Shown here one piece after another: positions 5,760 to 57,112 of a DNA stretch of 64,000 nt (the first letter of the stretch is position 1; every line of letters starts with the position of its first letter). Where the stretch lies: the sequence record ON568341.1; one strand, 5' to 3'. The stretch is from Escherichia phage UE-S1. A model generated the notes under the pieces. The model made no database searches and was not told the origin of the DNA. It saw only the letters and a list, made by a program, of their open reading frames with translations. Made by a program: the position numbers and the translations under genes.

Positions 5760-5765
5760 ATAAGT

Positions 5766-5793
5766 GAGACAACTCACAAAAATATGATATAAT
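5766..5793 (+). promoter_or_regulatory. Sigma70-like promoter: GAGACA, 16-nt spacer, TGaTATAAT
   Basis: GTGAGACAACT -35 element and extended -10 TGATATAAT upstream of the 5829-8883 gene block. Confidence 0.45.
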
Positions 5794-11188: not shown

Positions 11189-11229
11189 TTAAATATTTCC
11201 TCAGAATAGATTATATATGATGTATTTAT

Positions 11230-21916: not shown

Positions 21917-22025
21917 ATTATTTCCCTTTTATGAGTTAATGTCATATACCAATATTTATCAGTACAAAATACATTTCGTCGCCATTAATAAATAAATGAA
22001 AGTTCACTACTAAAAGGGCTTAACA

Positions 22026-30027: not shown

Positions 30028-33000
30028 TTATTTAACTAACAATATATTCTTAATATCATTCCCACTTACTCGTAGGCTATTAGTATACATTGAAAGGTCT
30101 ATTATGTAACTATTTTGAGTATAATGTTTAAATTTATCATAACTACCCAAATTAATACCATTAAAAGAATATGTAGTATTAAGTTTAAAATCATGCTCAG
30201 CACTATACATTACTCCACGGAGCAAATTATTTGCATTTCTGACTTCAACTTTTTCATATCCAATCGATATAATGTCATTCTTGTTAGCAGAAGAACTTAC
30301 TAACACATTATTTCTAACATTATAAGGACTTACTGATATAGGTTGTGCAACATACGTTGTATTTTCTTCACTGATAGTTGTTATGTTAGTGATAGTACCA
30401 CCGACAACACCTATATATATATCGTCAACCATTGGATATCCATAAACCCATATACCTTCATTGTTTTTGAATGGTTTGATAACATTCGCATCATATTCAA
30501 TTACGTTAATTTCTAAACAATCAGGCATTTTAGTTCTTACCAACTCACTAAGAACACCAGCCCCAGTAATTGGTAGGTTATACCCATTATCTATAGTAAT
30601 TCCATCGTCATTAAATATTTCGTTCGATACAATCCACACATCAACATCATCAGGTGTCATTCCGTCATTATACTTACCACCATTTAAAGTAGTATCATAA
30701 AAAACGTCATAATTGATCACATCAATAGTGTAATTTCGGTTTTGTTCATATAATTTAATATCATCTTTGACAAATTCTGAGTCAGAAAATGTTCTAACAC
30801 GAACGATGTTCAATGCAAGAGGCTGTACTGGCTCATTTTGTTGTGCAAGTGTGATATTATCATAACGAAGAACCGCACCAGAAGTATCAACTAATTCAAT
30901 CGTTTCCTTACCAGTAGTTCTTACTGTGAAAAGGATAGGAGTTGTATTATGTTTGATCTTAGATACACGCAATATGGTTTCCCATTTATGGTTTTGATAT
31001 CTTATAAAGTCTTCACCATCAGGAGTGAAAATCATCACCTTATCACCATCAGATAGGTCATTGTCAACAATTTCTGCTTCAGTCAAGCTATTAATAGATC
31101 TCACACGATAAAAATATTTTTCATCAAACGGTGCTGATTTTTTATTAATATCATTTTCAATCTTAGCATATGAAGGAATACTAACAATTGCTTCTGTGTG
31201 TTTATATGGATTTATAATTGCCATACCTTCAGTTTTATATCTACTATTATTACGCAATTGCACCAGTGACACGTTATCAAACCCATATCCATCAACAGTA
31301 AATCTAATATGTCCAACATCACGTCCAGATGGATTTATATCAGATATGTCAATAATATAAGGATCAACTTCATCGTCTTTAACTTCCCATTTTATGGTAG
31401 AAGTTTGTGATTCTAATGCAAGGTTATCAAATGCATTCATATCATTAAAGTACTTAGCTTCAGAAATACTTTTAAGTATATATTGATAGTTTGAATACAT
31501 TGGGTTATTTGTATCTTGTGGTAAATCATCAAGATTTATTTCCGCAAGTTCAACCATTTCACCATTTGTAATAAAATAATCTTCCATGAAATCATCAATA
31601 CTTCTGTTATCTGGTATACTTTGATATACACCATTAACATTTAAGTACACATATTTCCTTGGCATCATAGTAATAGCATAGATATCAATTGGTGTTTTTG
31701 AAAGAATTTCTTCCGCTTTTTCATACTTGTCGGTAGCATCTTTGTCAAACAATCCTCTCATACCAGCTAATACATGAACTGCATCTGAATAGAAACGCGT
31801 ATCTCCACCAACTTCGTCATAACGATAAACGTATACACCATATTCAACTTCTAGTTTTACTTTAATATCATAGTCTGATGCATCAGGATGTTCATCTTTA
31901 ATTAAAGAAATATATTTTTCATATAATTCTTTGCTTATTTCAAAATACCCATAGTTATAATCATTACTAGAAGAAAAACCTAATGGAAGTCTGGTGTTTG
32001 GATTATCATTGTAAGTCAAACCACTGAATCCACAACCAACGGCATCATGAATTTTATCATCACTGATATCTTTATAAAGTTTCAATCGGTTGGCTAATGT
32101 GTTATACTGAACATATTGTCTAAGGTCAGTAAACATTTCATTATGTGTTGATTCTTTATAAACGCGTTCTAACGTAGCTGTAAATTTATCAGTAGCTTCT
32201 AAATCATCTGCATGTTCTTTATACCACTTGTTTACACCATGTGCAGTTCCAAGTGTTACATCCAATTCTGGATAGTAGATTTGCATTAGATAAGCATTAA
32301 CAAGGTCAAACGAATTTTCATTATATTCTGGGAAAGAATATATGTAACGTTGTAATTCATAGTTATTAACAGAGTCTTTTTCATTGGTTTGATATTTTTT
32401 ATTAACATTAATTAAATCATTAATGTTTGCCAAATCTTCATTTGGTTTACATTGAATGTTATCATAATGCATAATAATATCAATTTCTTGGAATCTTCTA
32501 TGTGGGGAAATAAAATCACTAGGTAGTGCACCAACTTGTTCCCATTTTTTAGTAACTTCATTATATTGTGCGTACTCGTAATCCCAAATATCTTTTTCAG
32601 TTTTAATCCAAGAACCATCAACGAAAATATACCCATTAGGATCTAAATCGTTACAAAGACCTTTTATTAAATCATCATCAGATGTTTTTTGTTCTATTTG
32701 TGAACGAATTTTAGTTCTATAAGGTTTAACCTCTTCAAAGTACTCAACAATTTGATTAATCAAATTGTCATTTGAGTAATTTTGTACTAAAGATTGTTCC
32801 AAACCAACAATATAGATATAGGAAGTTTTAAATACCCAATCTACAACACTTTGTTCAACGTGAACATATTTTACCATATCAAAAACAATTTCACTTTGAT
32901 GTAAATCGAAAGAATGTTTGAGTAATGCTAGTGCTTTACGAACATTTATTTCACGATTACTAAGGGAACCGTTTTCATTATGAATACTATAGTCTGCATA

Positions 33001-36000
33001 AATCAAATCATTAAGTTCAATAGTGCTATGTTGACGACCAATAGCTTTCCAATAAATTGAATCACGCGATTGTGCTTTGATATACAACGTCCAAATATTT
33101 TCACTATCCGTAACTCTGATGATATCACCAACTTGATAATTTTTAGTATTTGCTTCTTCTAAACTAGTCTCTTGAATATAAGCTGTTTTGCTATCATACC
33201 CAACGTCATACCAATCAGCATACGACCAGTACTGAGTCATATCTAATGATGTTCCAAGTGATTCGACATAATCACTTTGCTTAATCATTTTATGTTGTCC
33301 CTCACCTTTATTTTCTAAAGTTATAGTAACAACATTTCCTGTATTGGCTGGGCTGTTCATTAACTGAATATATCCATTTTCATCAAAGTGAATGAAATAA
33401 ACTGCACTAGTGGATAAAGGATTTGGTAGATAACCACTGGAACTTAAAATAACAGCGTCATTTTCTTTAAATTTATCCTGCTCGACTGCAATCACTAATT
33501 CATTATTATAAGACAATACACGGAAAGAAACCTCATTAGGGTTAACTTCTGTTGTTTTGACATTAAACACATCTTCCATAACAACACTATTAGTGGTTAT
33601 GTTTTGTGATCTATAATAATTATTTGCACTTTCTACAAAGTTTCTTCGTGCATCAATTACATTCTGGAACCAGGTTTTATTGGAGCCTATACCATTATCA
33701 ACATCTGGATATAATAAATTTATCACCGAACCTGACTTGGTTGTTTCTTGTCCTATTAGTGAGTTCCACATTGAATCCCAAATTAATGGATTAAAGTTAT
33801 AGCTTTCACCCTCTTTACACAGTTGGTATTGATCATGTTTAACAACTTCAGTACTGTCCATATAGTAAGAAATAGTCAAAACACTAGTGTCATCATTGAC
33901 TTTAAACTGCATATTACTAAGGATAAAGGAGTTTTCATTAATTGGTGCAAACCAAGGAATGTTTAACTGTGATGGATCTTTAATAATACGTGCAATATCA
34001 GTACATGATTTAGTTCTGGTATGTAAAGGTGGTACATAAATTGTATCACGTACCCAGAAATAGTATTTTGTCACATAACTGTCAGTTGAGCTATCATATT
34101 CCAAAAATGTACTATAATTATCTTCAAGTGCAGTTCCGCTTGGAAGATACATATTATTATTTTTGTTTTTCTTAGCAACATCTTTACAGTACTTATCCCA
34201 GTTATATGGTTCTACTGGCGAGCATACCCACTCCAATACATCAATAGTGCTATGTGGCAACAAACGCCCCCAGTTGTATCGTTTGTATTCATTAGTAGCG
34301 TCAATATCAACATTACCATCTGCGTCATAAATGGCACGAGTATAATCCAAATAAAATGCAGTGCTTGTGTTCCACCATACTTGACCTACTTTATCTGCAC
34401 CCCAAGCTTGGACTAATTCACCATTACTATTATATTGTGCAGGGTCAATTGGTGAAGTATATGTCACGTTTTGCATAGCTGCACCTGGAATAACACCATT
34501 AATTGGGTCATAAACGTTTAGATATAATGCAGTAATATTTGTACGTTCATCATACGTTGTTGGTCGTTCAAATAGAGTGCTCTGTGGTGCTTTAAAGCTA
34601 TATTTTTTGTCAATATATTCTTGACGTTTATCAGCACTAGTGAATCGTGACACATAACGATACAAACGTGGACGAGTAGCCGGATCAGTAAATTCAATAT
34701 TAATTGAAGTATCAAATGGAACTACCATAACTTTAGGATCTTCGCCAGCAGTGTAATATTGACTTTCTACAGTTAAGGTATCTGGCATAAAATTCGTTTC
34801 ATCAACAAAATAATAATAATCGCCATCTTCAAGTGGGATTTTATCAGTCAATGTTACTTTACAGAATTGTTCAGCGTAAATATCGGTATTTTCGATTGGT
34901 GTTATAGAAACCATTTGCACATTAGTGTCAACTAATTCAAAAATGTTCCACAAACCATTACCATCTTTAAACATCCAAACTGATTCAGGATTTTCACCTT
35001 TACCATTAACATAAGAAATGCGGTCGTTATATGCAGTACTGAAATCTTTAGTAGTGTAAGATACTTCATCTAAGGTAACTGGACCAATATCAGGAAGTTG
35101 AATGTGTTCACTTCTCCCACTACGCATTGGAAATGAAAATTTTCCATTCGGGCGTGTAATCCAACGTGGGTCTTTACCTTGATCACCAAAATATACAACA
35201 TTATTACCAGTACCATTTGAAGTTGCATTTTCATCAAAAGACACCATTTGTGGTTGTTGTTTAAATTGGTCATTAATTAATTTAAATTGAAGATTTTTCT
35301 TACCATCAATATTACCATATGTACCAATTTTAAATGCCCATTCTTGTAATGCTTTATACTCATCAGTGTCATATGATTTAGAAACACGCAAAACACGTTC
35401 TAAAACTTGGTTAGTACCTTTATCATGAATAAATCCTTTATAAAAATCAACACGACTAACATCGCTACTAATCATACGTTGTAGATAATCACGGGATTGA
35501 TAGCCAATTAAATGACTAGACAATTCTTGTAATTGTACATCGCTTACTGGACTTTCATTATCATAGTAATGTTGGAAATCAGTTACTAATGTTTCAAATG
35601 AAGGAATTGTACCAGATTCTAATATAATAAAACCAGGTGCTTGTAATCTTCCAGTCCATGAACCAGTAATATAACCGTACATTTTGATTAGTTCCTGAAT
35701 AGAACCATATGTTGGTTGATAGATGTAATCACCAAAAATAGTTTTATCATCAAATATAACCGCATGTTCATATGAACACAAACTTAAACGAAGTAATGCA
35801 ATACGTTTATTAGAATCTAATGTTCTAACAGTGAAAATATTACCAATACGAGAAGTTTCGATTTCATACTGACGAATACCTTGGTTATTATCGTCAAGTA
35901 GTGACCATACTCCACCATTATTTTGTGTAATAGACTGAACTGAACCAAAATCTGAACCAAATTTTGCATTTGCTGCACTTGGTGTACAAGATATAAATTC

Positions 36001-39000
36001 ACCAGTTATAAGAGAATTCTGACTCCACATCACAAAATCTTTAGCAATAGTGTTCCAATCTTGTTGAACGCCGCCATCATTTACATCTTCGAAGATCCAT
36101 CCATGTTCTTTAAGATACTCCCCATAACCACAAATAAAAGTATAGACTTCTTGGTAACTGTTAAGAACTGTTCCATATTCAATAGAAGCCTCAGACTTCC
36201 ATTCATTGTAATGGACAACATTACGGTTTTCTAATTTAAGAGTTACTTTTCGACCATTTTTCACTGGGAGTTTATATTTAAATTTAGCCCCAACCAAGTC
36301 ATATCCATCTATTTGATATGCACTACCATTCCAGGTAATTTTGATAGCACTCATCTGTTCATCACGAATATTATTTGAACGTACAAGTCCAATTGTTTGG
36401 TTTTCTTGTGAAATCAACCCAAATGATTTAGCATTGAATGTTAGTTGGTCTGCTTTAGTAAATCCTCCAATTTTATGTCCTACATTTACATTAGAAGAAC
36501 GAACAACATCACCATATTTTGTAGTAATGTTTTTATTTTGATACATCAAATAATCACTAACGAACATTTGATACCCAATTGTTCTTGTGTTATTTTCACC
36601 ATGAACAGTGGTTTTTTTATCAAAATTGATACGATTACGGGTATCCCCATAAAGAAATTGTTCACCACCAGTGAATATTTCTTTTAAATTATCATTTCGG
36701 GTGTCCCAAAAATAGTTTGCGAATTGTGCTGGTTTAGCTTTATACAATAGCATCATTTGGTCATATGCAAATAATGTGGTATTCATGTAAGTAAATTCCA
36801 TGTCACCCATATCACCATATGCCCAAGGTTCGGCTCTATGATTTAAAGAACCAGATACTAAACCTAAAATCTCAGGGGCAATATACTCAACAACACAAAT
36901 ATCCACTCCAGAGGATGTTTTATTTCCAGTTTTTGTAATTTTAAATGGTTGTACACCAAATCTTCTATATTTGTCATACTGACCACGGCGGTCACCAGAT
37001 AAAATTGTACCAGTACTACTATCCCCGATAGTATCATTAATATTCCACAGACCACTAGGAACTAAATCACCTTGTTCATCAGTGACAAGTGCTTCATATA
37101 CATATACAACATCACCATCACGTTCACCAACTTGAACAGCAGTTGGTTCATATTCTTGATTCCACCAAGTAGGACGTTGTGTAAATCCAAACATTTCCCA
37201 TGGATGTGTTGCTGGACGATATGTACCATATTGGTCAGTATAGATTGCACGCCACGAACCACGAGCAGGAATTTCAGTACTTTTACCATTGACCATATAA
37301 TAGGTTCCAGTGTAGTTCCATGTTCTCCAGTTACTGGGATCATAATCATGTGTACTATTACTAATACCATTGGATGCTGTAAAGTTAATATAACCACGCA
37401 ATAAAAGTGTTTGTTTCTCTTCCGCACTATATTCAGTTTTTGTAAAATATGGTGTAGGGAAAAGGTCATCACTATTCAATACTGGAACATAATCAACATC
37501 TTTGAATTTATTATCAATACTATTAAAAATTCTATTTTCTAACTCATAAACAACATCATCCATTTTATCAACACCATTAATTACACGGTATGCTTTTGAA
37601 ATAATACCAGTATGACTAATGTTATAAAAGCTTGGTTTACTACCAGCAGTTAGAAATGTAGCTTTCTCAGGAACATATGCTTGTAAAATACCCAAAAACT
37701 GTGGTGTTGGTGGTATAAATGCACGAACAAGTCCAGATGTGCTTCCTACATTATCATAATAGAACGGGAATGAGCTGTCGCGTCCCATATTGATAGTAGT
37801 TAAAATAGAATCAACAATATTTGCTGCACTATTTTGTAAAAAGTTAGATGGATTTTCATTATACATACGAAGCATTTGAGTATTAAATTTATTAATGAAT
37901 CGGAAATATTCAGATTGCATAAACATAGTTGCTTCAAATAAATCAATATCTTCATTTGCGGTATGAGCCATCAATGGAAGCATAGAAGCTTCATTTTGAA
38001 TAATTTTAGTTCCTACTCCATTATTCACTAATCCCTTAGCTAAACGTTCTTCATAATCGTTGAAGTCATCAGCATAACCACTAGTGATATTCTGTTGAAT
38101 AATATCCTGAAAATGTAGAGTATAGTCTCCTTGATTAATATATATAATATTGGAGTTATATGGGTTATTTTGTAAGTTAATCGGAACTTCATATGCACCT
38201 AATTCTTTATCAGGTGTTACGGTTCTACTATAAGTTCTAATTTGAATAACAGAATCATCATCTAAATCTACCGAACTATCAAGTGTGATGCTTTGTACTT
38301 GGCCTTTTGATACATTCTTTGTATATTTTGATACATTAACACCATCGACATTAACTTCAATAATATCAGAATCATTATCTAAAACTTTTTGAGCTAATTC
38401 AAACGTATGATCATATTTTAAAATCTGAATACCATCACCACTAATCTGATGCCAGTCCAAATAAGTTTCACGTTCTGCTTTATAGTACTGATATGTTCTA
38501 TCAACTTCAATAACATATGCATACATACCATCAACAGGTTCTTTGAACACTTCCATGTCATATACAGTACTGAATACTCGATACATGTCAGTGCGTTGGA
38601 CCTGTGGAGTTTGTTTTACATATTGTTTAGAGTATTCGTTTGAACGAACCCAATCAGTTTTTAGATTCATTTTATTATTTTCATCAATAATGTTATAATA
38701 ATACAATCCACCAATTTCAACTTCAACACCAAGATGATCATATGTATAACGTTGTGATTGCAAAAAGTTTTCATAGGTGTAATAGTTATAATCACCAAGT
38801 TCAATGTTATACCCATATACACTATCAGTAGCGTAATTATAATTTATTTTAAAACCAAATAATTGTGAACCTTTAAAGTTACTGGATGGGTATGTTGTAC
38901 TATTATCTAGTTTAATCCCATTGCGATCATAAAGTTGGAATTTTGGGAAGACGTTAACACTAGGTTTAGACTGTGCACGAACCCACAAATTACCATTCCA

Positions 39001-40023
39001 AAACATAGAACTATTACCATATTCATTACCTTTGGTAATTAAAACAACATCTCCATCCTGTGGTTCACCACTTGGACGAGATTCTGATTCTTCATCGGGG
39101 TCTAGTGCTAAGCCATAAACACGTGTACCATCTTGCATTTTTTTAACATATACTTTATAAATCCTATTGTTTTCACCATCGTTACCAATACTAGTGAATA
39201 GAATACGCATACCATCTTGTGGAATAATACCATCAATACGAATACCACTATTGACATCTTTTTGGATAATATCTTCAGGTTTAATATTATCAGAAAAAAG
39301 TTCAACTGTACCACGGAATTTCGTACCGTAGTTAATTAGCTCAATGTTTTTATTATATTCAATAATTGGTGCACGAGCACGAATAAAACGAGCATCTTGC
39401 ATTAATTCTTCGGTCAAGATTGAACCATCTTCCAGTGTCTCACCTAAAGTATACCAAAAGTTTTGTAATGACCAAGTATTACCATTAAGTGCACCACGTT
39501 CCATGACAATGTAGTCAGGAGTAGTAATATTATAAGAGTTTTTTGTATCCCAAAGATATGAGCTAAAATTATTCATTTTATTTGGGTTAATTGCAGGTGT
39601 CCATGCGTAAAACTTACCGTTAAATAAGCGACTTTCATTATCGGTTAGTGCTCCATAATGACTCATGTACCCAACCAGATCATCATAAAATTGAATTGAA
39701 CGAATAGTCGAATCATCATTTTTAGAGACGTAAGCAGTGGACAACTGATATAGTTGTCGAGCAACAGTACTTTCGTGTAAAAAGATATTACCAGCAGCGG
39801 CTGGAGAACCCATATCACCAATATAACCGTCAACTAATTCGTTTTCAGCCGGATTAAACCATTGTTGAATAACATCATCACTGACTTTCTGAATATCTTC
39901 TAAGCCTTGCATCCACTCAGGCAATCTTTTAATAAAAAGCTTTTTCTGTACTGCTTCAGCCATCTGTGTAGGTTGAAACTTAAAATTATTAGTCATTTTC
40001 TGGACTCCATATAATTCGTTCAT
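30028..40023 (-). CDS. Giant (3331-aa) virion protein at the position of a gp7 / gpI-like baseplate wedge component
   Basis: Uninterrupted ~10-kb ORF; sits directly downstream of the gp6/J-like gene in the conserved spike, W, J, I order. Confidence 0.65.
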   Translation of the reverse strand: MNELYGVQKMTNNFKFQPTQMAEAVQKKLFIKRLPEWMQGLEDIQKVSDDVIQQWFNPAENELVDGYIGDMGSPAAAGNIFLHESTVARQLYQLSTAYVSKNDDSTIRSIQFYDDLVGYMSHYGALTDNESRLFNGKFYAWTPAINPNKMNNFSSYLWDTKNSYNITTPDYIVMERGALNGNTWSLQNFWYTLGETLEDGSILTEELMQDARFIRARAPIIEYNKNIELINYGTKFRGTVELFSDNIKPEDIIQKDVNSGIRIDGIIPQDGMRILFTSIGNDGENNRIYKVYVKKMQDGTRVYGLALDPDEESESRPSGEPQDGDVVLITKGNEYGNSSMFWNGNLWVRAQSKPSVNVFPKFQLYDRNGIKLDNSTTYPSSNFKGSQLFGFKINYNYATDSVYGYNIELGDYNYYTYENFLQSQRYTYDHLGVEVEIGGLYYYNIIDENNKMNLKTDWVRSNEYSKQYVKQTPQVQRTDMYRVFSTVYDMEVFKEPVDGMYAYVIEVDRTYQYYKAERETYLDWHQISGDGIQILKYDHTFELAQKVLDNDSDIIEVNVDGVNVSKYTKNVSKGQVQSITLDSSVDLDDDSVIQIRTYSRTVTPDKELGAYEVPINLQNNPYNSNIIYINQGDYTLHFQDIIQQNITSGYADDFNDYEERLAKGLVNNGVGTKIIQNEASMLPLMAHTANEDIDLFEATMFMQSEYFRFINKFNTQMLRMYNENPSNFLQNSAANIVDSILTTINMGRDSSFPFYYDNVGSTSGLVRAFIPPTPQFLGILQAYVPEKATFLTAGSKPSFYNISHTGIISKAYRVINGVDKMDDVVYELENRIFNSIDNKFKDVDYVPVLNSDDLFPTPYFTKTEYSAEEKQTLLLRGYINFTASNGISNSTHDYDPSNWRTWNYTGTYYMVNGKSTEIPARGSWRAIYTDQYGTYRPATHPWEMFGFTQRPTWWNQEYEPTAVQVGERDGDVVYVYEALVTDEQGDLVPSGLWNINDTIGDSSTGTILSGDRRGQYDKYRRFGVQPFKITKTGNKTSSGVDICVVEYIAPEILGLVSGSLNHRAEPWAYGDMGDMEFTYMNTTLFAYDQMMLLYKAKPAQFANYFWDTRNDNLKEIFTGGEQFLYGDTRNRINFDKKTTVHGENNTRTIGYQMFVSDYLMYQNKNITTKYGDVVRSSNVNVGHKIGGFTKADQLTFNAKSFGLISQENQTIGLVRSNNIRDEQMSAIKITWNGSAYQIDGYDLVGAKFKYKLPVKNGRKVTLKLENRNVVHYNEWKSEASIEYGTVLNSYQEVYTFICGYGEYLKEHGWIFEDVNDGGVQQDWNTIAKDFVMWSQNSLITGEFISCTPSAANAKFGSDFGSVQSITQNNGGVWSLLDDNNQGIRQYEIETSRIGNIFTVRTLDSNKRIALLRLSLCSYEHAVIFDDKTIFGDYIYQPTYGSIQELIKMYGYITGSWTGRLQAPGFIILESGTIPSFETLVTDFQHYYDNESPVSDVQLQELSSHLIGYQSRDYLQRMISSDVSRVDFYKGFIHDKGTNQVLERVLRVSKSYDTDEYKALQEWAFKIGTYGNIDGKKNLQFKLINDQFKQQPQMVSFDENATSNGTGNNVVYFGDQGKDPRWITRPNGKFSFPMRSGRSEHIQLPDIGPVTLDEVSYTTKDFSTAYNDRISYVNGKGENPESVWMFKDGNGLWNIFELVDTNVQMVSITPIENTDIYAEQFCKVTLTDKIPLEDGDYYYFVDETNFMPDTLTVESQYYTAGEDPKVMVVPFDTSINIEFTDPATRPRLYRYVSRFTSADKRQEYIDKKYSFKAPQSTLFERPTTYDERTNITALYLNVYDPINGVIPGAAMQNVTYTSPIDPAQYNSNGELVQAWGADKVGQVWWNTSTAFYLDYTRAIYDADGNVDIDATNEYKRYNWGRLLPHSTIDVLEWVCSPVEPYNWDKYCKDVAKKNKNNNMYLPSGTALEDNYSTFLEYDSSTDSYVTKYYFWVRDTIYVPPLHTRTKSCTDIARIIKDPSQLNIPWFAPINENSFILSNMQFKVNDDTSVLTISYYMDSTEVVKHDQYQLCKEGESYNFNPLIWDSMWNSLIGQETTKSGSVINLLYPDVDNGIGSNKTWFQNVIDARRNFVESANNYYRSQNITTNSVVMEDVFNVKTTEVNPNEVSFRVLSYNNELVIAVEQDKFKENDAVILSSSGYLPNPLSTSAVYFIHFDENGYIQLMNSPANTGNVVTITLENKGEGQHKMIKQSDYVESLGTSLDMTQYWSYADWYDVGYDSKTAYIQETSLEEANTKNYQVGDIIRVTDSENIWTLYIKAQSRDSIYWKAIGRQHSTIELNDLIYADYSIHNENGSLSNREINVRKALALLKHSFDLHQSEIVFDMVKYVHVEQSVVDWVFKTSYIYIVGLEQSLVQNYSNDNLINQIVEYFEEVKPYRTKIRSQIEQKTSDDDLIKGLCNDLDPNGYIFVDGSWIKTEKDIWDYEYAQYNEVTKKWEQVGALPSDFISPHRRFQEIDIIMHYDNIQCKPNEDLANINDLINVNKKYQTNEKDSVNNYELQRYIYSFPEYNENSFDLVNAYLMQIYYPELDVTLGTAHGVNKWYKEHADDLEATDKFTATLERVYKESTHNEMFTDLRQYVQYNTLANRLKLYKDISDDKIHDAVGCGFSGLTYNDNPNTRLPLGFSSSNDYNYGYFEISKELYEKYISLIKDEHPDASDYDIKVKLEVEYGVYVYRYDEVGGDTRFYSDAVHVLAGMRGLFDKDATDKYEKAEEILSKTPIDIYAITMMPRKYVYLNVNGVYQSIPDNRSIDDFMEDYFITNGEMVELAEINLDDLPQDTNNPMYSNYQYILKSISEAKYFNDMNAFDNLALESQTSTIKWEVKDDEVDPYIIDISDINPSGRDVGHIRFTVDGYGFDNVSLVQLRNNSRYKTEGMAIINPYKHTEAIVSIPSYAKIENDINKKSAPFDEKYFYRVRSINSLTEAEIVDNDLSDGDKVMIFTPDGEDFIRYQNHKWETILRVSKIKHNTTPILFTVRTTGKETIELVDTSGAVLRYDNITLAQQNEPVQPLALNIVRVRTFSDSEFVKDDIKLYEQNRNYTIDVINYDVFYDTTLNGGKYNDGMTPDDVDVWIVSNEIFNDDGITIDNGYNLPITGAGVLSELVRTKMPDCLEINVIEYDANVIKPFKNNEGIWVYGYPMVDDIYIGVVGGTITNITTISEENTTYVAQPISVSPYNVRNNVLVSSSANKNDIISIGYEKVEVRNANNLLRGVMYSAEHDFKLNTTYSFNGINLGSYDKFKHYTQNSYIIDLSMYTNSLRVSGNDIKNILLVK

Positions 40024-40043
40024 TCATTTATTTTATTTATTAG

Positions 40044-49828: not shown

Positions 49829-50577
49829 TAAATAAATCCTCCTTTGCGTAATAGTTCACCTCGTTTAAATGCATTGAGGTTAAACGTTTTAGTCATATAA
49901 TCAGATGTCGGTTGTTCTTCAAGTTGTAACATAACTGATATTTTTTGTGGAACCCAAACTTCATCTTGTGGATTCATATATCCAGTACTTCTAAGTTGTT
50001 CGAAGAATTTTCTACTATCCATATCGGATAAATTAAAAGTACTGTCACTACTATTCAAAGGAACTTGAATATAAGAAACATCATTAGGATATGTAAAATT
50101 ATAAGATTTTAAAATTACCGGAATATCATTATATGTGTAACGACCATATCCACTTAAAAGTAAAATTGGTGGTGGTGCACCAGCAATTGCCAATTCGGGG
50201 TTATTAGCAGATGCTGCTTGTCTACCAAAATCCATCAATGAAACCGAACGTATAAAATGAACACATGCCAATGCATACATGGCTTCTGCTGCCGTATTAG
50301 CATAAAATTCACCCTGAATAGTGAAAACCGTATTGGTGGTGTTTTTGTAATTATTATAGTTACTATTGGTATGTATAGGTGACTGTGTTTCATACTGAAT
50401 TGACCTTTGTTCAGTAATTATTGGTGTTACAGTCCAAACCAACCCATTAGTTGGACGCAGAAACGAAAGTAGTGTTGGTTCGGAGCTATCCCCGAAATCA
50501 CCATATACATAGTTAGCACCTGCGGCTTTAGGTCGTAATCGAATTCTACGATCAATCATCTTTTGATTCTCCATCAT
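49828..50577 (-). CDS. Hypothetical protein (start moved to the first in-frame ATG; the track start at 50616 is a GTG)
   Basis: ORF with ATGATGG at 50577-50572; stop overlaps the downstream start. Confidence 0.45.
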   Translation of the reverse strand: MMENQKMIDRRIRLRPKAAGANYVYGDFGDSSEPTLLSFLRPTNGLVWTVTPIITEQRSIQYETQSPIHTNSNYNNYKNTTNTVFTIQGEFYANTAAEAMYALACVHFIRSVSLMDFGRQAASANNPELAIAGAPPPILLLSGYGRYTYNDIPVILKSYNFTYPNDVSYIQVPLNSSDSTFNLSDMDSRKFFEQLRSTGYMNPQDEVWVPQKISVMLQLEEQPTSDYMTKTFNLNAFKRGELLRKGGFI

Positions 50578-50604
50578 AAGGGAACATTTGATGTATTTAT
50601 ACGT

Positions 50605-50632
50605 GGGACAAAACACTTTTTGGTGCTATAAT
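50605..50632 (+). promoter_or_regulatory. Sigma70-like promoter: GGGACA, 16-nt spacer, TGcTATAAT
   Basis: Extended -10 TGCTATAAT at 50624-50632, about 58 nt upstream of the gp55-like ATG. Confidence 0.4.
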
Positions 50633-50689
50633 AACATTGATGGTATAAGGATTGTATCTATTGGATTTAAACATGGAGAGTTGAATATA

Positions 50690-51529
50690 ATGACAAATAG
50701 ACCAAAGCGTAAAAAGTATCTCAATAATGCTGATTTACTTCGTGAAATACAAAAAAGTAAGATTTCATATTGCTGGTTATTAGACAAATCATATAGTATG
50801 TATGATTATATCGTTTTTCATGAGTCAGAAATTACTGCTGAGTTACTTGAAAAAGCAAAAGCAGCACGAATTAAACGACTTAACAATGAAATGCTTGATA
50901 GTATTCGTGCAAAGGAAAATATGAGTGCTAAAAAAGCGAAAGAATATGCAGAAGAAAATAATCTAGTTATTACTGATGTTCCAATTGATGAAGTAGTTAT
51001 TCGTGTTATTACAGATGAACACATCCCACCAGATACTAGAGTTAATTTTGAACCTTTCAAACATTATATCGTAGATAATGAAGGTATTCTTTATGAAGTA
51101 TGTCGCTCTCATTGGAAAGGTGACCTTGAATCTGGGGAATTTAGTACTGTTCATGGTAAAATAACAAATGAACTAGGGAAAATGTTCATTAAACTAGCAG
51201 AGGAAATCTCACATAAATCTAACTATAGAAACTATACATACTTAGATGAAATGATGGGTGATGCAAGAATACAATTAGTTAAAAATGCACTTCTCTTTAA
51301 AGAGAGTATTCTTTATAAAAAAGACAAACCCGCTGTACAACTAAATCCTTTCTCTTACTATACATCATTCGTAAACAATAGTTTTCGTTCAATTTTGAAT
51401 AGTGAGAAAAATGTTCGAAATATACGTGATGATTTACTTGAAATGCATGGCTTTACACCATCACATACACGTCAAATTGAAATTGAATTGAACATGATTG
51501 AAAGGAAAAATGAAGATGGCACTGTTTGA
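50690..51529 (+). CDS. gp55-like late-transcription sigma factor with an internal insertion
   Basis: YLNNADLLREIQKSK resembles the T4 gp55 N-terminus; distal segments GKMFIKLAEEIS and FSYYTSFVNNSFRSIL resemble gp55 core regions (from memory); GGAGAG ribosome-binding site. Confidence 0.5.
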   Translation: MTNRPKRKKYLNNADLLREIQKSKISYCWLLDKSYSMYDYIVFHESEITAELLEKAKAARIKRLNNEMLDSIRAKENMSAKKAKEYAEENNLVITDVPIDEVVIRVITDEHIPPDTRVNFEPFKHYIVDNEGILYEVCRSHWKGDLESGEFSTVHGKITNELGKMFIKLAEEISHKSNYRNYTYLDEMMGDARIQLVKNALLFKESILYKKDKPAVQLNPFSYYTSFVNNSFRSILNSEKNVRNIRDDLLEMHGFTPSHTRQIEIELNMIERKNEDGTV

Positions 51530-52547
51530 TAAAGCAATTACATTCACTGATATCCATTTAGGTTTAAAGAATAACAGCAAGCAGCACAATGAAGATTGTT
51601 TAAACTTCATTAAATTTATGATTGATGTAGCTAAAAAAAATAATATTAAATTTTGTGTTTTTATGGGTGATTATTTTCACAATAGAAGTAATATAAATAT
51701 CCAAACACTAAACTATGGTTTACAAATACTTCAATTACTAAATGATAATTTTGAAAAAGTTTATTTTCTAGTTGGGAACCATGATATGTATCACAAAAAC
51801 AAACGTGATATAACAAGTATCAACATGGCCCAAGTTTATGAAAATATAGAATTCATAAACGAAATTACAACGATTGATGATTGTACTTTTATTCCTTTCA
51901 TGATTGAAGATGAATATAAGTTGTTACCACAACTAAAAAGTAAGTATGTTTTTGGACACCTAGAATTACCAGGTTACTTACTTAACAAAATGGTCGAAAT
52001 GCCCGACCATGGTAAAGAAACAGAGGGTTCTTTTGGTGGTTGTGAGTATGTTTTTAGTGGGCATTTTCATAAGAGACAATCAAAAACAACATCAAAGGGA
52101 ACTCGTGTAGTTTATACTGGTAATTGTTTCCCACATAATTTTTCCGATACATGGGATGATGCAAGAGGTGTGATGATTTTAGAACATGGAAAAGAACCAA
52201 TTTTCAATTCTTGGACAGAAGCACCAAAATATAGAACATTTACACTTTCAGAACTTTTGACTGACCCAAGTTATTATCTTCAAGAGAATACAATTTCAAA
52301 GGTTCAAGTTGATATTGCGATAACTACAGATGAAATTAGTTTTATTCGTGATACTTTCACTAAACTTTATAACATACGTGAATTTAACGTAGTTACTAGT
52401 AAACAAAGTATATCAGAATTGATTGAAGATGGTAAAAGCTTTGAAAGTACTGAGTCAGTTGATGAGATTGTTTTACAACAAATTATGGAAATTGATTCAC
52501 CAATGTTCGATAAAAATCTTCTAATCCAAATTTACAGATCGCTATAA
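51516..52547 (+). CDS. Mre11/SbcD-family nuclease (T4 gp47-like)
   Basis: Calcineurin-like phosphoesterase motifs (TDIHLG, GDYFHN, GNHDM, GHLE, GHFH); start chosen at the ATG with an AGGAAA ribosome-binding site. Confidence 0.75.
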   Translation: MALFDKAITFTDIHLGLKNNSKQHNEDCLNFIKFMIDVAKKNNIKFCVFMGDYFHNRSNINIQTLNYGLQILQLLNDNFEKVYFLVGNHDMYHKNKRDITSINMAQVYENIEFINEITTIDDCTFIPFMIEDEYKLLPQLKSKYVFGHLELPGYLLNKMVEMPDHGKETEGSFGGCEYVFSGHFHKRQSKTTSKGTRVVYTGNCFPHNFSDTWDDARGVMILEHGKEPIFNSWTEAPKYRTFTLSELLTDPSYYLQENTISKVQVDIAITTDEISFIRDTFTKLYNIREFNVVTSKQSISELIEDGKSFESTESVDEIVLQQIMEIDSPMFDKNLLIQIYRSL

Positions 52548-52555
52548 GGGAATAT

Positions 52556-54703
52556 ATGCTAAACATTACACGTATATCAATGAGGAACTTCTTTTCATTT
52601 GGGAACGCACCACAATCAATAGAATTGAATAGTTCTGATATTTCATTAGTTCTTGGGCAAAATAATGATGCAGTTATTGAAGGTGGTGATAGCACTGGAC
52701 GACGAAATGGAGTAGGGAAAAGTGCTATTATTCAAGGATTAGTTTTTGGCTTATTTGGGAAAAGTATTGGTAATGATATTAAAATTCCCAACCTAGTCAA
52801 CAAAACTAATGGCAAAAATTGTGAAGTAGTTATAGAGTTTGAAAAAGATGGTGTGCAATATATAGTTGAGCGTGGGAGAAGTCCTACGTATTTCAATTTT
52901 ATCACATTAGGAAAAGATAATAAGATTGAAGATGAATCGAGAGGTGAAAAAAAAGACACACAAGAAGATTTGAATGAAATTCTTGGAATATCTCAATTAT
53001 TATTTGAACATATTGTAGTTCTTAATGCGAACGTAGAACCGTTTTTGGCTTTATCATCTCAAAAACAACGTGATATGATAGAAGAACTTCTTGGAATAAC
53101 ACAGTTGACTGAAAAAGCTGAAATTCTAAAGGAGATGTACAAGGATACTAAACGTTTAGCCGAACAAGAAAAGTTCAAAAATGAAACTGTGGCTGCAAGC
53201 AATGAACGCATTCAAAAAAGTATTGAAGTACTTCAAGAACAGGCTAACCAATTTGAGATTGATAAAAGTAATAGAGTATCTAAGCTAAATGAAGAGTTGA
53301 ATATATATAAAACTTTAGATTTCAATGATCTCTACCAAGCTGCTGAAGAGAAAGAGAAAGCTCTTATTCATAACGCAAAGCGTGGTGAAATTGAACGCCG
53401 TGTACAAGAGTTGGCTTTAAAATATGATGCTTATGAACGTGAACTTGAAACGTCCAAGCGAGTGTTAAATCTAAGCATTGATAATTTAAAAACGATTGAT
53501 ATTAGTTCGGAATTGGAAAATCACAAGGAGTTGGAAATATGGAAACAGTTAGAGGCTATTCTTAAAGAGAATAATAATCAAAAACGTTTCAAAGAACAAA
53601 AGCTCAACTCACTAAAAGTTGCGTTGAATGGATATAAATGTTCAATTAATACTGAAATCGATAAATTATCAACAGTTGAAAGCAGTAAATGTCCACTTTG
53701 TATGTCTGATTTGGAACATAACGAACATACATCTTCAATTAAAGACAAAATTCAAAGTTCTATTAGTGATCTTCAAACCAAAATTGATAGTTCTTCTTCA
53801 GAAATTGAAACATTACTTAAAGAAATTGAGAGTATTGAGATTTTTGATATGCCACCTAAACCAGTGACATACTATAATACACTTTCAGAAGCACAAATGC
53901 ATGAACATAAGCTTCAAGAACTGATTAAAAAGAGCGAAGAAGAACCAATAAACATCTATGCTAACGAACTTATGTCATCATATGATGAACTTAACTCATA
54001 TGAACTAATGGAAGTACCAGATACATTAAACAAGTACGAAGTTAAAGAGCTAGAAATGACCGTAAGCTCGTTATCACAGCAATTAGAACGTGAATTGAAG
54101 ACTACTAACACTTTTATTAGCCAAATTAACACCCTTAAGACAGATTCTTTAGTTACAATAGACTATAGTGACTATAATAATCTTGATAAAATGTCAAATC
54201 ACCAAGATTTTTTGGTTAAATTACTATTGAACAAGGATTCTTATGTCCGTAAGCGTATTATTGAGCAAAATATCTCATATTTGAATACACGACTTCAGTA
54301 TTATATCGATATGTGCGGTTCTGAGCACAATGTTGTCTTTTTGAATGATTTGAGTGTTGAAATTGAGAAAAGTGGGCAGTACTTTGACTATAAACAGCTT
54401 AGTAGGGGTGAGCGTACAAGGGTAAACATCGCATTATCTTGTGCTTTCCGTGATACATATGAGTCATTATACCAAAGTATTAATATTCTTATCATTGATG
54501 AGATGATTGACCAAGGTCTTGACTCAAGTGGTGTTCTACGTGTGTGGTCTATCTTCCAAGATATGGCTGCTGTACGTGGTAAGAATGTTTATGCTATTTC
54601 CCACAGAGAAGAGTTACTTTCTAAGACTGAAAAAATCCTCAAAGTTGTTAAAGAGGACGGATTCAGTACTGTTGAATATGCAACTCTTGATGATGTTTTC
54701 TAA
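52556..54703 (+). CDS. Rad50/SbcC-family ATPase (T4 gp46-like)
   Basis: P-loop NGVGKSAI, coiled-coil middle with CPLC zinc-hook motif, signature LSRGERTRV, Walker B ILIIDEM. Confidence 0.8.
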   Translation: MLNITRISMRNFFSFGNAPQSIELNSSDISLVLGQNNDAVIEGGDSTGRRNGVGKSAIIQGLVFGLFGKSIGNDIKIPNLVNKTNGKNCEVVIEFEKDGVQYIVERGRSPTYFNFITLGKDNKIEDESRGEKKDTQEDLNEILGISQLLFEHIVVLNANVEPFLALSSQKQRDMIEELLGITQLTEKAEILKEMYKDTKRLAEQEKFKNETVAASNERIQKSIEVLQEQANQFEIDKSNRVSKLNEELNIYKTLDFNDLYQAAEEKEKALIHNAKRGEIERRVQELALKYDAYERELETSKRVLNLSIDNLKTIDISSELENHKELEIWKQLEAILKENNNQKRFKEQKLNSLKVALNGYKCSINTEIDKLSTVESSKCPLCMSDLEHNEHTSSIKDKIQSSISDLQTKIDSSSSEIETLLKEIESIEIFDMPPKPVTYYNTLSEAQMHEHKLQELIKKSEEEPINIYANELMSSYDELNSYELMEVPDTLNKYEVKELEMTVSSLSQQLERELKTTNTFISQINTLKTDSLVTIDYSDYNNLDKMSNHQDFLVKLLLNKDSYVRKRIIEQNISYLNTRLQYYIDMCGSEHNVVFLNDLSVEIEKSGQYFDYKQLSRGERTRVNIALSCAFRDTYESLYQSINILIIDEMIDQGLDSSGVLRVWSIFQDMAAVRGKNVYAISHREELLSKTEKILKVVKEDGFSTVEYATLDDVF

Positions 54704-54711
54704 TTAAAAGA

Positions 54712-54740
54712 TAAAGGGAGCCTTAGCTCCCTTTTTTTAC
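54712..54740. terminator. Bidirectional rho-independent terminator overlapping the 3' end of the minus-strand gene
   Basis: AAGGGAGC-ctta-GCTCCCTT hairpin followed by T7. Confidence 0.6.
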
Positions 54741-55214
54741 ATCAACCATATTTAATTTACCGTCCTTAATCAGCTTTCTAGCTTGTTTTGCACGAGTAGT
54801 AGTGTTACTGCCAGGGACAACTCCGAACCCTTCCAGAATCTCGTTTTGCTGCGTTGCTGGGAGCCTTTTAAATTTATTAGTATCCACTGTTAGTGCCGTG
54901 TGATGTATAACTTGCTCTTCTGGTGGAATATTATTGTTCTTTTCAAGGTAGTCAGCAAGGTTGCGTAGTACTTCATGCAATGGCTTATCTGTTAAATGAC
55001 TAAGACAGCGTTTAAATGAATTTGCAACCCTTCCTTCCCATCCATTCACCTCATTTTGAAGAACCTGTCTACAATGTTGATTTCCACCATGATAGTGATC
55101 CAGAACTGGTTTAGTTATTTTTATGCCTATGATGGGGTCAATGCCATTTTGTTTATTTAGCAATTCAGTTCGATAGTTTGCAGCATCCTTACTATCTTTT
55201 AATCTTTTTTTCAT
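54723..55214 (-). CDS. Endonuclease VII-like His-Me finger nuclease (candidate junction resolvase)
   Basis: LDHYHGGNQHCRQVLQNEVNGWEGR resembles the T4 endonuclease VII HNH-like core as I recall it. Confidence 0.45.
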   Translation of the reverse strand: MKKRLKDSKDAANYRTELLNKQNGIDPIIGIKITKPVLDHYHGGNQHCRQVLQNEVNGWEGRVANSFKRCLSHLTDKPLHEVLRNLADYLEKNNNIPPEEQVIHHTALTVDTNKFKRLPATQQNEILEGFGVVPGSNTTTRAKQARKLIKDGKLNMVDVKKGS

Positions 55215-55305
55215 AATTCCTCACCAAACTATTTGTCATCACAATATTTATAGATTAGTTATTTGCAATATTTTAAGTACTTAATGAATATTTTATAAAA
55301 ATAGT

Positions 55306-55333
55306 GAGACAACTTTAAAATTTGTGCTATAAT
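55306..55333 (+). promoter_or_regulatory. Sigma70-like promoter: GAGACA, 16-nt spacer, TGcTATAAT, firing into a non-coding block
   Basis: GTGAGACAACT plus TGCTATAAT; near-identical architecture to the promoter at 5766-5793. Confidence 0.45.
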
Positions 55334-55339
55334 ATTTGT

Positions 55340-55787
55340 TGTAGTAATGACAATCCTGTTGAATGCAGAAATGCATATAAATGAGAACCTGATCCTATCG
55401 AAAATGTAGATGGCAGATGAGCAGTTCAACAGTGCGATGAGCAGAAGAAACCCGTCAGATGTGGGCATAGTTTGAACCCCTCACGGCAATGCGGCTCAAT
55501 AAAGAACTCCGATAAGCATACAGAGAGTTCCTAGATAGACATATAAGGATCGCACCTTACCAGATTTGCTAAGGGAGTTTATTAAGTGATTTTAATAAAC
55601 AGCCTGAAGTTTGATTGTATAGACTTTCAGGTGAGTGTCAGGATGATTAAGACTGACGACCGTTGCATATGACCGTGATAGGGAGAAACCGAGCAACCCG
55701 CTTCCGTTTGCGATTGATCTTTTTACAATATAGATCCGTCCAAAATTCACGATACAATAAATGCTGAAACCATCAGCGTCAAGAAAT
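55340..55787 (+). ncRNA. Candidate ~450-nt structured non-coding RNA of unknown class
   Basis: Bounded by promoter 55306-55333 and terminator 55787-55810; visibly more G+C-rich than flanks; only short ORFs; local inverted repeats. Confidence 0.3.
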
Positions 55788-55810
55788 AGAGACTTCATTG
55801 TCTCTTTTTT
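55787..55810 (+). terminator. Rho-independent terminator ending the candidate ncRNA
   Basis: TAGAGAC-ttcatt-GTCTCT hairpin followed by T5. Confidence 0.4.
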
Positions 55811-56017
55811 ATTGTCTTCATTCCCCTGCGGGGGGATGAAAATGTCCTCAACAAATCCCGTCAAGTATTAAATCTTTTAAAGTTCTTTATAATTAATTTA
55901 ATGAAATGAATATGAGTTACGTAGTAACGAATATTCTTCAGCTAACGAATGAAATGAGTTAGATGAATCCAATAATATTAAAATTAATTCTTCCATAATT
56001 CAATTCAAATAATTCTG

Positions 56018-56046
56018 TAGTTTAATGAAAAAAAAAACCAGCAACA
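56018..56046 (-). terminator. Rho-independent terminator downstream of the 56067-57112 minus-strand genes
   Basis: CCAGCA-caatgt-GCTGG hairpin followed on the minus strand by T10. Confidence 0.6.
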
Positions 56047-56066
56047 ATGTGCTGGTCGTGTGGGAT

Positions 56067-56276
56067 TTAGTGCTTCTCGTTTTGTTTTTTAATTTTTTTA
56101 TTAAAAGACTTAACTAATAAGTCTCTATCTATTAATGGCATATTAAGAAGTGTTCCGTAATCAATATTATCCATATACACAGAACACTCCATTAGTGCAT
56201 TTTTGATTTCTGACTTATTCAGTTCTATCTCCTTCAGTACTTCTTGTATTTCTTCAGGAGATGACTGGAGAAGCAT
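56067..56276 (-). CDS. Small hypothetical protein
   Basis: 69-aa ORF whose start overlaps the upstream stop by 1 nt. Confidence 0.45.
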   Translation of the reverse strand: MLLQSSPEEIQEVLKEIELNKSEIKNALMECSVYMDNIDYGTLLNMPLIDRDLLVKSFNKKIKKQNEKH

Positions 56277-57112
56277 TACTCGAAAAAATGACTAGGATCA
56301 TATTTTAGTCCATCAATTTCCCATTGATGATTACATCCATCACACTCAACTTCCATACTATGCGATACTCCAATTTCAAGTACTTCATCCATTTTTTCAC
56401 GAATTAGTTTAAGAACTCCTTTTGATTGTTGTCCAAGCCACTCATTAATGAATTCTTTTTCAACTACTTCATCACCATCTGGAGTGATGATTTTTGCAAT
56501 AACTCCACCAATCATATCAAAGTTTAGTTGTGCCATATTTTCAAATACTTCAGAAAATATTTTTACTTTTTCGTCTTGTTCAATCTCAGCAGTTTCTAGA
56601 AACTTAGTTTTCTGCTGCTCACTGAACATACGCTCAGCAAACGATGAATATTCTTTCCATGTTAGTGGTCTAAACTCTAAACGTAGTCCATTATCTAAAT
56701 CAATAGATGGGATTTCTTCGAATGCTTGTGCAGTTTCAAGAAGATATGATAGATTACGTTCAAAACGACCTTCTTTTTCACATTCAGGACATACAGCGTT
56801 AATATCATATGTTTCTTCTTTAGATGCAACTTTAATAGCAATAAGAAGCATTTCAACGTCATTTACATATAACTCATCAGCATCAATAACATTAGGAACA
56901 CAGTTTTCAATGACACGTGATACTGCATCGCCGTTTAGTAACATATCTGGTGTATTGAGTGTCATTTCATCACGTGCACTACGTGCACAAACGCCACATT
57001 TGACACCTTTTGGACCTAAAACTCCGTCTTTATAAGGAATAATGCCGTTAGTAACTAATTTTGTACTGATCTCTTCAATTTTAGTGTACTTAGCAAGTGG
57101 ATTCATAGCCAT
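56276..57112 (-). CDS. Cys-cluster protein (putative zinc-binding), possibly a baseplate hub or assembly component
   Basis: 278 aa with CGVC, CPEC and CDGC pairs; divergent from the head-module operon. Confidence 0.5.
   Translation of the reverse strand: MAMNPLAKYTKIEEISTKLVTNGIIPYKDGVLGPKGVKCGVCARSARDEMTLNTPDMLLNGDAVSRVIENCVPNVIDADELYVNDVEMLLIAIKVASKEETYDINAVCPECEKEGRFERNLSYLLETAQAFEEIPSIDLDNGLRLEFRPLTWKEYSSFAERMFSEQQKTKFLETAEIEQDEKVKIFSEVFENMAQLNFDMIGGVIAKIITPDGDEVVEKEFINEWLGQQSKGVLKLIREKMDEVLEIGVSHSMEVECDGCNHQWEIDGLKYDPSHFFE

Follow-up and report, generated by a model that had tools for sequence, protein, structure and literature searches.

A long-form gp55-type late sigma factor with a probable internal domain insertion in Escherichia phage UE-S1

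The 64,000-nucleotide stretch of Escherichia phage UE-S1 that was analyzed (sequence record ON568341.1; hereafter the window) includes a plus-strand gene for a protein of 279 aa, designated here the sigma protein, which is preceded by its own promoter and Shine-Dalgarno sequence and is flanked by virion-protein genes on one side and nuclease genes on the other (Table 1). A previous sequence-only reading of the interval 50605–51529 had reported a late sigma factor homolog of ~279 aa, and the open reading frame (ORF) at 50690–51529 agrees with that length. The interval does enclose both the gene and its promoter, but position 50605 belongs to the -35-like hexamer and is not the start of the coding sequence (CDS). 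Over 1.7 kb around the sigma gene, the window shares 94% nucleotide identity with Escherichia phage 121Q (genus Asteriusvirus), and the same 1.7 kb is also 94% identical in ~20 sibling phages of 121Q. The sigma protein displays 98% amino acid identity with 121Q gp591, which is annotated as "sigma factor for late transcription," and is identical to a protein encoded in a 344-kb assembly (P0001). It also matched PHROG 12791 ("sigma factor for late transcription," 286 positions) with an E-value of 8e-154, residues 3–277 aligning with profile positions 2–284. Judged by these sequence identities, the window derives from a 121Q/RaK2-like jumbo myovirus of E. coli of the genus Asteriusvirus. The sigma gene belongs to a family that has been catalogued and annotated before, its close relatives are annotated correctly, and it is not peculiar to UE-S1. 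From the alignments and structural models described below, the gene very probably encodes a late-transcription sigma factor that belongs to the T4 gp55 family as a long form with an internal insertion of ~119 residues.

Table 1. Positions of the sigma gene, its parts and associated features (window coordinates unless 121Q is named).
Feature	Position	Strand	Remarks
Sigma CDS	50690 (ATG) to stop 51527–51529	+	279-aa ORF
gp55 segment 1, residues 1–22 (KKYLNNADLLREIQK)	50690–50755	+	Y10 and N13 correspond to T4 Y10 and N13
Insertion of ~119 residues, residues 23–141	50756–51112	+	Predicted alpha/beta domain; with flanking linker, residues 26–158
Sigma-region-2-like domain and helix-loop-helix, residues 142–279 and stop	51113–51529	+	H2 160–174, H3 185–198, H4 220–252, H4/H5 257–275
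-35-like TGGGACA, class B	50604–50610	+	TGGGACA in Asteriusvirus group; TGGAACG in GAP32 and Yen9-03
Extended -10 TGcTATAAT	50624–50632	+	GTGnTATAAT in window, 121Q, 7t3, GAP32 and Yen9-03; MIJ3 GTTGTAAAAT
5′ untranslated leader, ~50 nt	50633–50689	+	Holds conserved block and Shine-Dalgarno sequence
Leader block TAAGGATTGT, consensus ACAAGGATCGT	50652–50662	+	Kept in 121Q, 7t3, GAP32 and Yen9-03; partly in MIJ3
Shine-Dalgarno GGAG	50675–50678	+	With ATG, kept across four phage genera
Late promoter motif TATAAATA	50594–50601	-	For divergent virion gene; 16 nt from first in-frame ATG
Divergent virion-protein gene	49828–50559/50577	-	Served by the motif at 50594–50601
gp47/SbcD-like nuclease	start 51510 or 51516	+	Overlaps sigma stop by 14–20 nt
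gp46/SbcC-like ATPase	52556–54703	+	Downstream, same unit 51510–54703
Class-B promoter sites	5765–5793, 50604–50632, 55305–55333	+	Further sites at 121Q loci L002 and L004
gp609, DsbA-like	121Q L004:23056–23358		Immediately upstream of DNA polymerase gene; no gp33 after it

The relationship of the sigma protein to T4 gp55 was assessed by profile, pairwise and structural comparisons. The classical gp55 family, phrog_234, matched residues 125–262 with an E-value of 8.1e-18. An hhalign comparison of 33 long-form proteins (alignment A1) with 26 T4-type gp55 sequences (alignment A2) yielded a probability of 98% and an E-value of 2.6e-13, and BLASTP of the sigma protein against T4 gp55 gave an E-value of 2e-4. 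A Pfam scan of the protein assigned no family and returned only a sub-threshold match to AtTam9, and the protein does not match the sigma-70 models for regions 2 and 4 (Pfam Sigma70_r2, r3, and r4). A phmmer search of PDB sequences with the sigma protein also gave no match, the T4 gp55 structures being reached only with T4 gp55 as the query. A model of the protein built with AlphaFold2 (AF2) on alignment A1 had a predicted local distance difference test score (pLDDT) of 87.5 and a predicted template modeling score (pTM) of 0.77. The five-helix architecture, comprising sigma-region-2-like helices H1–H4 and the H4/H5 helix-loop-helix, is present in the protein. As modeled, therefore, the sigma protein has the gp55 fold, namely a sigma-region-2-like helical domain followed by a helix-loop-helix. 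Residues 142–279 run collinear with T4 gp55 starting at its residue 23 (to T4 residue 134 in BLAST and to residue 121 in hhalign; about 150 overall). Thus, the gp55 homology proposed in the sequence-only reading was borne out by the phrog_234 and hhalign matches and by alignment with the gp55 family.

The same reading had envisaged gp55-like segments at the N-terminus and distally with extra sequence inserted between them. Residues 8–22 (KKYLNNADLLREIQK) align without gaps, and with the same numbering, with residues 8–22 of T4 gp55 (YNYVNNKELLQAIID). Within this segment, all T4-type sequences have Y10 and N13, which also are kept in nearly every long-form sequence. The conservation of an aromatic residue at position 10 was pointed out in a review of T4 (PMC2988020), and N13 of T4 gp55 lines the pocket of the flipped -9 adenine (PMC7892883). 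The three conserved positions of the segment, an aromatic residue at 10, N13, and an aromatic residue at 23, are represented in the sigma protein by Y10, N13, and W142, the last of which coincides with T4 W23 when residues 23–141 are excised. A hidden Markov model (HMM) of the T4-type N-terminus (T4 residues 5–27) scored +8.3 bits at residues 6–20 of the sigma protein compared to -2.3 bits at residues 125–132 and, with few exceptions among the 33 long-form proteins, mapped to the N-terminus. When every internal deletion of the protein was scanned against the T4-type profile, the optimum was the union of residues 1–22 with residues 142–279, which scored 64.0 bits compared to 50.6 bits for the native protein and 48.5 bits for residues 124–279 alone. 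The corresponding junction between LLREI and SHWKG was optimal in six of eight diverse relatives, in which the deletion scan gained 11–17 bits. The spacing between W23 and G44 in T4 gp55 and between W142 and G163 in the sigma protein is 21 residues in each case. Collinearity from W142/W23 onward therefore places an insertion of ~119 residues (23–141) between T4 positions 22 and 23.

Two alignments weigh against this arrangement. BLASTP positioned T4 residues 7–134 on residues 124–248 of the sigma protein and hhalign positioned T4 residues 8–121 on residues 124–247. Both methods alone set T4 residues 7–21 on residues 124–139 and not on the N-terminus, and if this placement is taken by itself residues 1–123 would be an N-terminal extension. 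The extension would then be fused to a complete gp55 core (residues 124–279), and the N-terminal likeness to T4 gp55 would be coincidental or a duplicated motif. The tblastn matches of cyanophage gp55 proteins also start at residue 124. However, residues 123–139 are predicted by the AF2 model to form beta strands rather than a helix, and family-wide conservation is seen at Y10 and N13 but not at Y126 and N130. Moreover, both the N-terminal HMM and the excision scores given above favor the terminal segment over residues 124–139. An N-terminal extension is improbable when these results are considered together, and the segment HMM and deletion scans led to rejection of the placement of the T4 N-terminus on residues 124–139. 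The sequence and model comparisons instead support the interpretation that the extra length is an internal insertion and not a terminal extension. The sequence-only reading therefore anticipated this feature correctly: the N-terminal segment was located by its HMM match and the distal segment by the best-fitting excision of residues 23–141, with the insertion further sustained by the junction in relatives.

Residues that act in promoter recognition and polymerase binding by T4 gp55 were traced in the long-form proteins, with roles taken from the T4 structural work (PMC7892883) and conservation counted over the 33 long-form sequences. In T4 gp55, N13, L54, R57, F86, H95, Y97, and T99 line the pockets that hold the flipped bases at -12, -9, and -8 (PMC7892883). 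The -9 pocket residue N13 is retained as N13 in 31 of the 33 sequences, and F86, Y97, and T99 correspond to F203, Y223, and T225, each of which is present in all 33. The counterpart of R57, at position 176, is lysine or arginine, that of L54 is I173, and that of H95 is an invariant phenylalanine, F221. On this alignment, the sigma protein conserves the residues that would read TATAAATA at -12, -9, and -8. Three acidic residues of H3 in T4 gp55, E70, D74, and E77, bind the beta′ clamp helices (PMC7892883). E70 is matched by E187 in 33 of 33 sequences. However, position 191, the counterpart of D74, is aspartate or glutamate in only 25, and position 194, the counterpart of E77, is hydrophobic in 32, both of which count against the assignment of the protein as a gp55-type sigma factor.

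The inserted region was also modeled in isolation. Residues 26–158, modeled alone from a 22-sequence alignment, gave a pLDDT of 92.6 and a pTM of 0.82, with a long helical hairpin (residues 50–89) packed on a small beta sheet. In these predictions the inserted domain folds autonomously as an alpha/beta unit. Structure prediction, which had been put forward with the sequence-only reading as a check, thus produced a confident AF2 model of the sigma protein and an insertion that folds alone. No structural neighbor of the domain was found in PDB or BFVD, the sole BFVD match being a truncated copy of the same protein (A0A2Z5HHY8). The domain is acidic with a pI of 5.1, and its invariant residues include D39, I41, R60, R63, R105, F120, K124, S140, and H141. 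In a search of 1.84 billion representative proteins, the profile built from the domain matched at least 408 clusters, defined at 50% identity, at E ≤ 1e-3, of which 259 were at E ≤ 1e-10. In the matching clusters the domain starts almost always at residue 21–30. The sigma core also was present in 137 of the 147 best representatives, and the other 10 were short fragments. Therefore, as far as is visible, the domain occurs only as an insertion in gp55-like proteins. The 288 close homologs of the sigma protein are 274–330 aa in length, whereas T4-type and cyanophage gp55 proteins are 160–190 aa. The added length, which had been singled out against the ~185 aa of T4 gp55, is thus common to a large long-form branch of the family, but is not a feature of T4-type or cyanophage gp55.

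Larger insertions were noted in certain long-form proteins. Among the 147 representatives, 32 are 420–980 aa long (P0249, P0250, P0275, P0349, and ~28 more), and in most of these the sigma core is split by one or two inserts of 140–470 residues. The inserts are always at the same two sites, either after NYRNY (Y182/T183 of the window protein) or in H4 (~N230/S231). In the sequences inspected, they begin with cysteine, include a TxxH block, and end with asparagine that is followed by serine or cysteine. A LAGLIDADG domain is present in one (Pfam E-value 6.7e-6), and another weakly resembles RecA mini-intein structures (E-value 0.013). These inserts probably are inteins in a phage late sigma factor. 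As relatives of the sigma protein are often intein hosts, with a split core in most of the 32 representatives that exceed 400 aa, the insertion at residues 23–141 might be viewed as the degenerate remnant of a mobile element, for instance an intein or a homing endonuclease, that plays no part in transcription. Such an origin is hardly credible: the inteins occupy sites after residue 182 and in H4 instead of the 22/23 junction, the insertion lacks Cys/Ser-…-Asn splice-junction features, at least 400 clusters share its conserved sequence, in which 14 columns are invariant, and it folds confidently as part of the sigma protein. Separately, truncated proteins that consist only of the N-terminal segment and the insertion domain were found (A0A2Z5HHY8, 134 aa; P0265, P0248, and P0292, 141–177 aa), one of which is 91% identical to the window sigma protein over 81 aligned columns. 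These proteins are either artefacts of contig ends or frameshifts, or products of split sigma genes in some relatives.

At the C-terminus of T4 gp55, a flexible linker is followed by the clamp-binding motif SLDFLY, also present in gp43 and gp33 (PMC2988020). The sigma protein ends in …IERKNEDGTV, four residues past H5, and the same holds for its relatives in phages 121Q, GAP32, Yersinia fHe-Yen9-03 (Yen9-03), and Salmonella 7t3. A hydrophobic/acidic clamp-binding tail of the SLDFLY type is absent from the sigma protein, which has no C-terminal motif in common with the 121Q DNA polymerase. SLDFL[FY] is shared by T4 gp43 and gp55, whereas the end of the 121Q polymerase (…NNGFFTW) is unlike the sigma C-terminus. 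Acidic and aromatic tails do occur in some distant long-form members. Among replication and transcription proteins of 121Q, gp60 is a gp44-like clamp loader (tblastn E-value 2e-23), gp167 is a separate RpoD-like sigma factor encoded in the early region, and gp609, a 100-aa protein annotated as hypothetical, matched phrog_639 (E-value 1.3e-7), the family that T4 DsbA also matches. T4 DsbA binds double-stranded DNA, and translation of its gene is coupled to that of gene 33. When 20 ORFs of 121Q in the vicinity of the replication, polymerase, and clamp loader genes were scanned with PHROG and Pfam, no gp45, gp33, or gp62 was revealed. A tblastn search with T4 proteins over the window and 130 kb of 121Q, with ~218 kb lying outside, also returned none of the three, although negatives from sequence methods are weak at this distance, and a tblastn query with T4 gp55 misses the sigma gene itself. 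The small ORFs of the window were scanned for gp33 and none was found. The genome papers on RaK2 (PMC3622015) and CBB (PMC5259590) likewise include no gp45, and the latter no gp33 either. The description of group 2 jumbo phages as generally possessing a PCNA-type clamp and a gp33 ortholog (Iyer et al., PMC7824862) weighs against the absence of these partners.

The sequence-only reading had speculated that the central region contacts a clamp or co-activator. In this scheme the insertion would be the contact surface for the sliding clamp or a gp33-like co-activator, and the coupling of late transcription to replication that operates in T4 would be maintained via the insertion and not the tail. 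The retention of the gp44-like clamp loader and the DsbA-like protein in 121Q is compatible with such a role, as are the invariant surface-type residues of the insertion (R60, R63, R105, K124, and the SHW motif). In addition, in the absence of a C-terminal clamp-binding tail any coupling would need another surface. Nevertheless, neither the clamp (phrog_223) nor gp33 (phrog_254), the homologs of which the reading had proposed to locate, was detected in the 20 ORFs, the tblastn survey of the window and 130 kb of 121Q was negative, gp45 is missing from the RaK2 and CBB papers and gp33 from the CBB paper, and the fold of the insertion resembles no known clamp-binding module. Contact of the insertion with a clamp or gp33-like protein is therefore unlikely and, as originally proposed, is a speculation that these observations do not support.

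The sigma gene is situated between a minus-strand block of virion-protein and baseplate genes and plus-strand genes for gp47/SbcD-like and gp46/SbcC-like proteins. The order 55-47-46 is that of T4 and is maintained in GAP32, Yen9-03, 7t3, and the PA5oct-like Pseudomonas phage MIJ3. The gp47-like gene begins before the sigma stop codon, so the sigma, gp47-like, and gp46-like genes probably form one operon. The promoter of the sigma gene, GGGACA-16 nt-TATAAT at 50605–50632, has 10 of 12 matches and an extended -10 TG. It is the best of six promoter-like matches found in the region, where 7.6 were expected, and is conserved in position and sequence across four related-phage genera. The conserved block in the leader may be a translational or RNA-level control element.

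The promoter had been described as early-type. In 121Q, class A promoters (TTGAC.-N16-18-TA.AAT) number 26 on the coding strand of the 50-kb early region, and 5 and 0 in two other stretches of the genome. Class B sites (TG[AG][AG]AC[AG]-N16-TA.AAT, or TGRRACR) number 0 in the early region, and 6, 5, and 4 on the forward strand of the two other 121Q stretches and the window, respectively. Class B promoters, with the form TGRGACA-N16-TGnTATAAT, have a fixed 16-nt spacer and usually a TG-extended -10 element. At the sites that were checked they precede ssb, primase, exonuclease, topoisomerase, DsbA-like, and sigma genes. A divergent RpoD-like class, "TGAAACG," was described in CBB upstream of replication genes and of the gp55-like gene CBB_244 (PMC5259590), and the -35-like element of the sigma gene agrees with this class. 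The data indicate that the sigma gene promoter belongs to a second class that is common to replication and recombination genes and is not of the canonical early type. The early-type assignment thus does not hold, the early region of 121Q being devoid of class B sites. Pre-late expression is expected for a late sigma factor. Class B may be read either by host sigma70 or by the RpoD-like sigma factor of the phage.

The late promoter motif TATAAATA upstream of the divergent virion gene is intergenic and is 2 nt from the -35-like element of the sigma gene, the two being back-to-back. It is kept as (T)ATAAATA in 121Q, 7t3, GAP32, and Yen9-03. In the window as a whole TATAAATA is not over-represented, with 7 sites compared to 10.4 expected. 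Intergenic DNA, which makes up 5.9% of the window, holds five of the seven TATAAATA sites and 12 of the 17 ATAAATA sites, whereas ~1 in 17 would be expected. Eleven ATAAATA sites are 10–56 nt upstream of a gene on the same strand, and the genes behind these sites include several for virion and baseplate proteins. ATAAATA is similarly located before structural genes in the CBB (PMC5259590) and GAP32 genome papers. Judged by its distribution, the T4-type late motif behaves as a real signal in the window. No further conserved element that might be a target of the insertion was found upstream of the late motifs, where there are only T-tracts, some at terminator-like hairpins. Within the virion block, (T)ATAAATA is present in nearly every intergenic gap, at 11223, 21953/21988, 40034, 43597, 44556, 50594, 55245, 57149/57205, 61202, and 63089. 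The sites at 21953/21988 and 57149/57205 are back-to-back divergent pairs, and several motifs directly follow a GC-rich hairpin and T-tract that resemble a terminator. The virion/baseplate block also includes a single ORF of 3331 aa at 30028–40023 on the minus strand, which is preceded by ATAAATA motifs at 40034 and 40090.

The sigma protein resembles T4 gp55 (PDB 7D7C/7D7D; PMC7892883, PMC2988020) in possessing counterparts of Y10, N13, F86, Y97, T99, and E70, in the TATAAATA-type late promoters that precede virion genes, and in the location of its gene next to 47 and 46 behind a pre-late promoter. It differs in its length, which is 279 aa compared to 185 aa, the ~119-residue domain lying between T4 positions 22 and 23, and in the absence of an SLDFLY-type tail. 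Furthermore, the counterpart of E77 is hydrophobic and that of H95 is phenylalanine, and gp33 and gp45 partners were undetected by weak sequence methods applied to part of 121Q. By contrast, there is no material difference from the long-form gp55 proteins of RaK2-like and PA5oct-like jumbo phages (121Q gp591, GAP32_238, CBB_244, and MIJ3_00398), which belong to the same full-length family, have the same gene neighborhood and promoter architecture, and already are annotated as sigma factors for late transcription. The insertion and the missing tail are not described in PMC5259590, PMC3622015, PMC7824862, or bioRxiv 406421. Specifically, the papers that were searched were not found to describe the insertion of an orphan-fold domain at T4 position 22/23, the lack of a clamp-binding tail, or how broad the long-form clade is.

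A scheme for the action of the sigma protein can be proposed. The sigma gene would be co-transcribed with the gp47/gp46-like nuclease genes from the sigma70-like class B promoter. This class also precedes replication genes, so the sigma factor would be made before late genes are needed. The protein would then replace sigma70 on the core of the host RNA polymerase, with H3 docking on the beta′ clamp helices and E187 taking the place of T4 E70, and would direct transcription of late (virion) genes from T4-like promoters that have only a -10 element. Primary sigma factors have a non-conserved region (NCR) between regions 1.2 and 2.1. The insertion is predicted to be located in the N-terminal helix of the domain, topologically at the NCR site. 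The likeness is one of analogy only, a lineage-specific acidic surface domain being interposed in each case after the first helix, ahead of the remainder of the region-2 fold. The best guess is that the insertion most likely is a surface module through which the protein makes an additional contact, either with RNA polymerase or with a phage partner, and it may compensate for the missing clamp tether. A more specific proposal, which is conceivable but doubtful, is that long-form gp55 is a self-sufficient late sigma factor without a clamp tether in which the insertion provides an activating contact with RNA polymerase or promoter DNA. If this proposal is correct, jumbo phages of the RaK2-like and PA5oct-like groups would transcribe their late genes independently of the replication clamp, which would be a mechanistically distinct solution within the T4 superfamily.

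Late transcription in T4 is the textbook case of a sliding clamp that acts as a transcriptional activator. The large and environmentally widespread branch of gp55 described here, with at least 400 clusters, is unlike T4 gp55 in having a conserved extra domain, no clamp-binding tail, and an origin in phages without a recognizable clamp or gp33. The question thereby raised is whether late transcription is coupled to replication throughout the T4 superfamily or proceeds differently in jumbo phages. The practical consequence for the window itself is small.

Finally, a stretch of ~1 kb between the endonuclease VII and baseplate hub genes (55215–56275) includes the class B promoter at 55305–55333, with no convincing plus-strand ORF downstream of the promoter. 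The matching stretch of 121Q (326509–327344) is partly unannotated. An Rfam search over 50500–56400 returned nothing above threshold, and within 55215–56275 it gave only a sub-threshold small RNA match. This stretch may specify a non-coding transcript.

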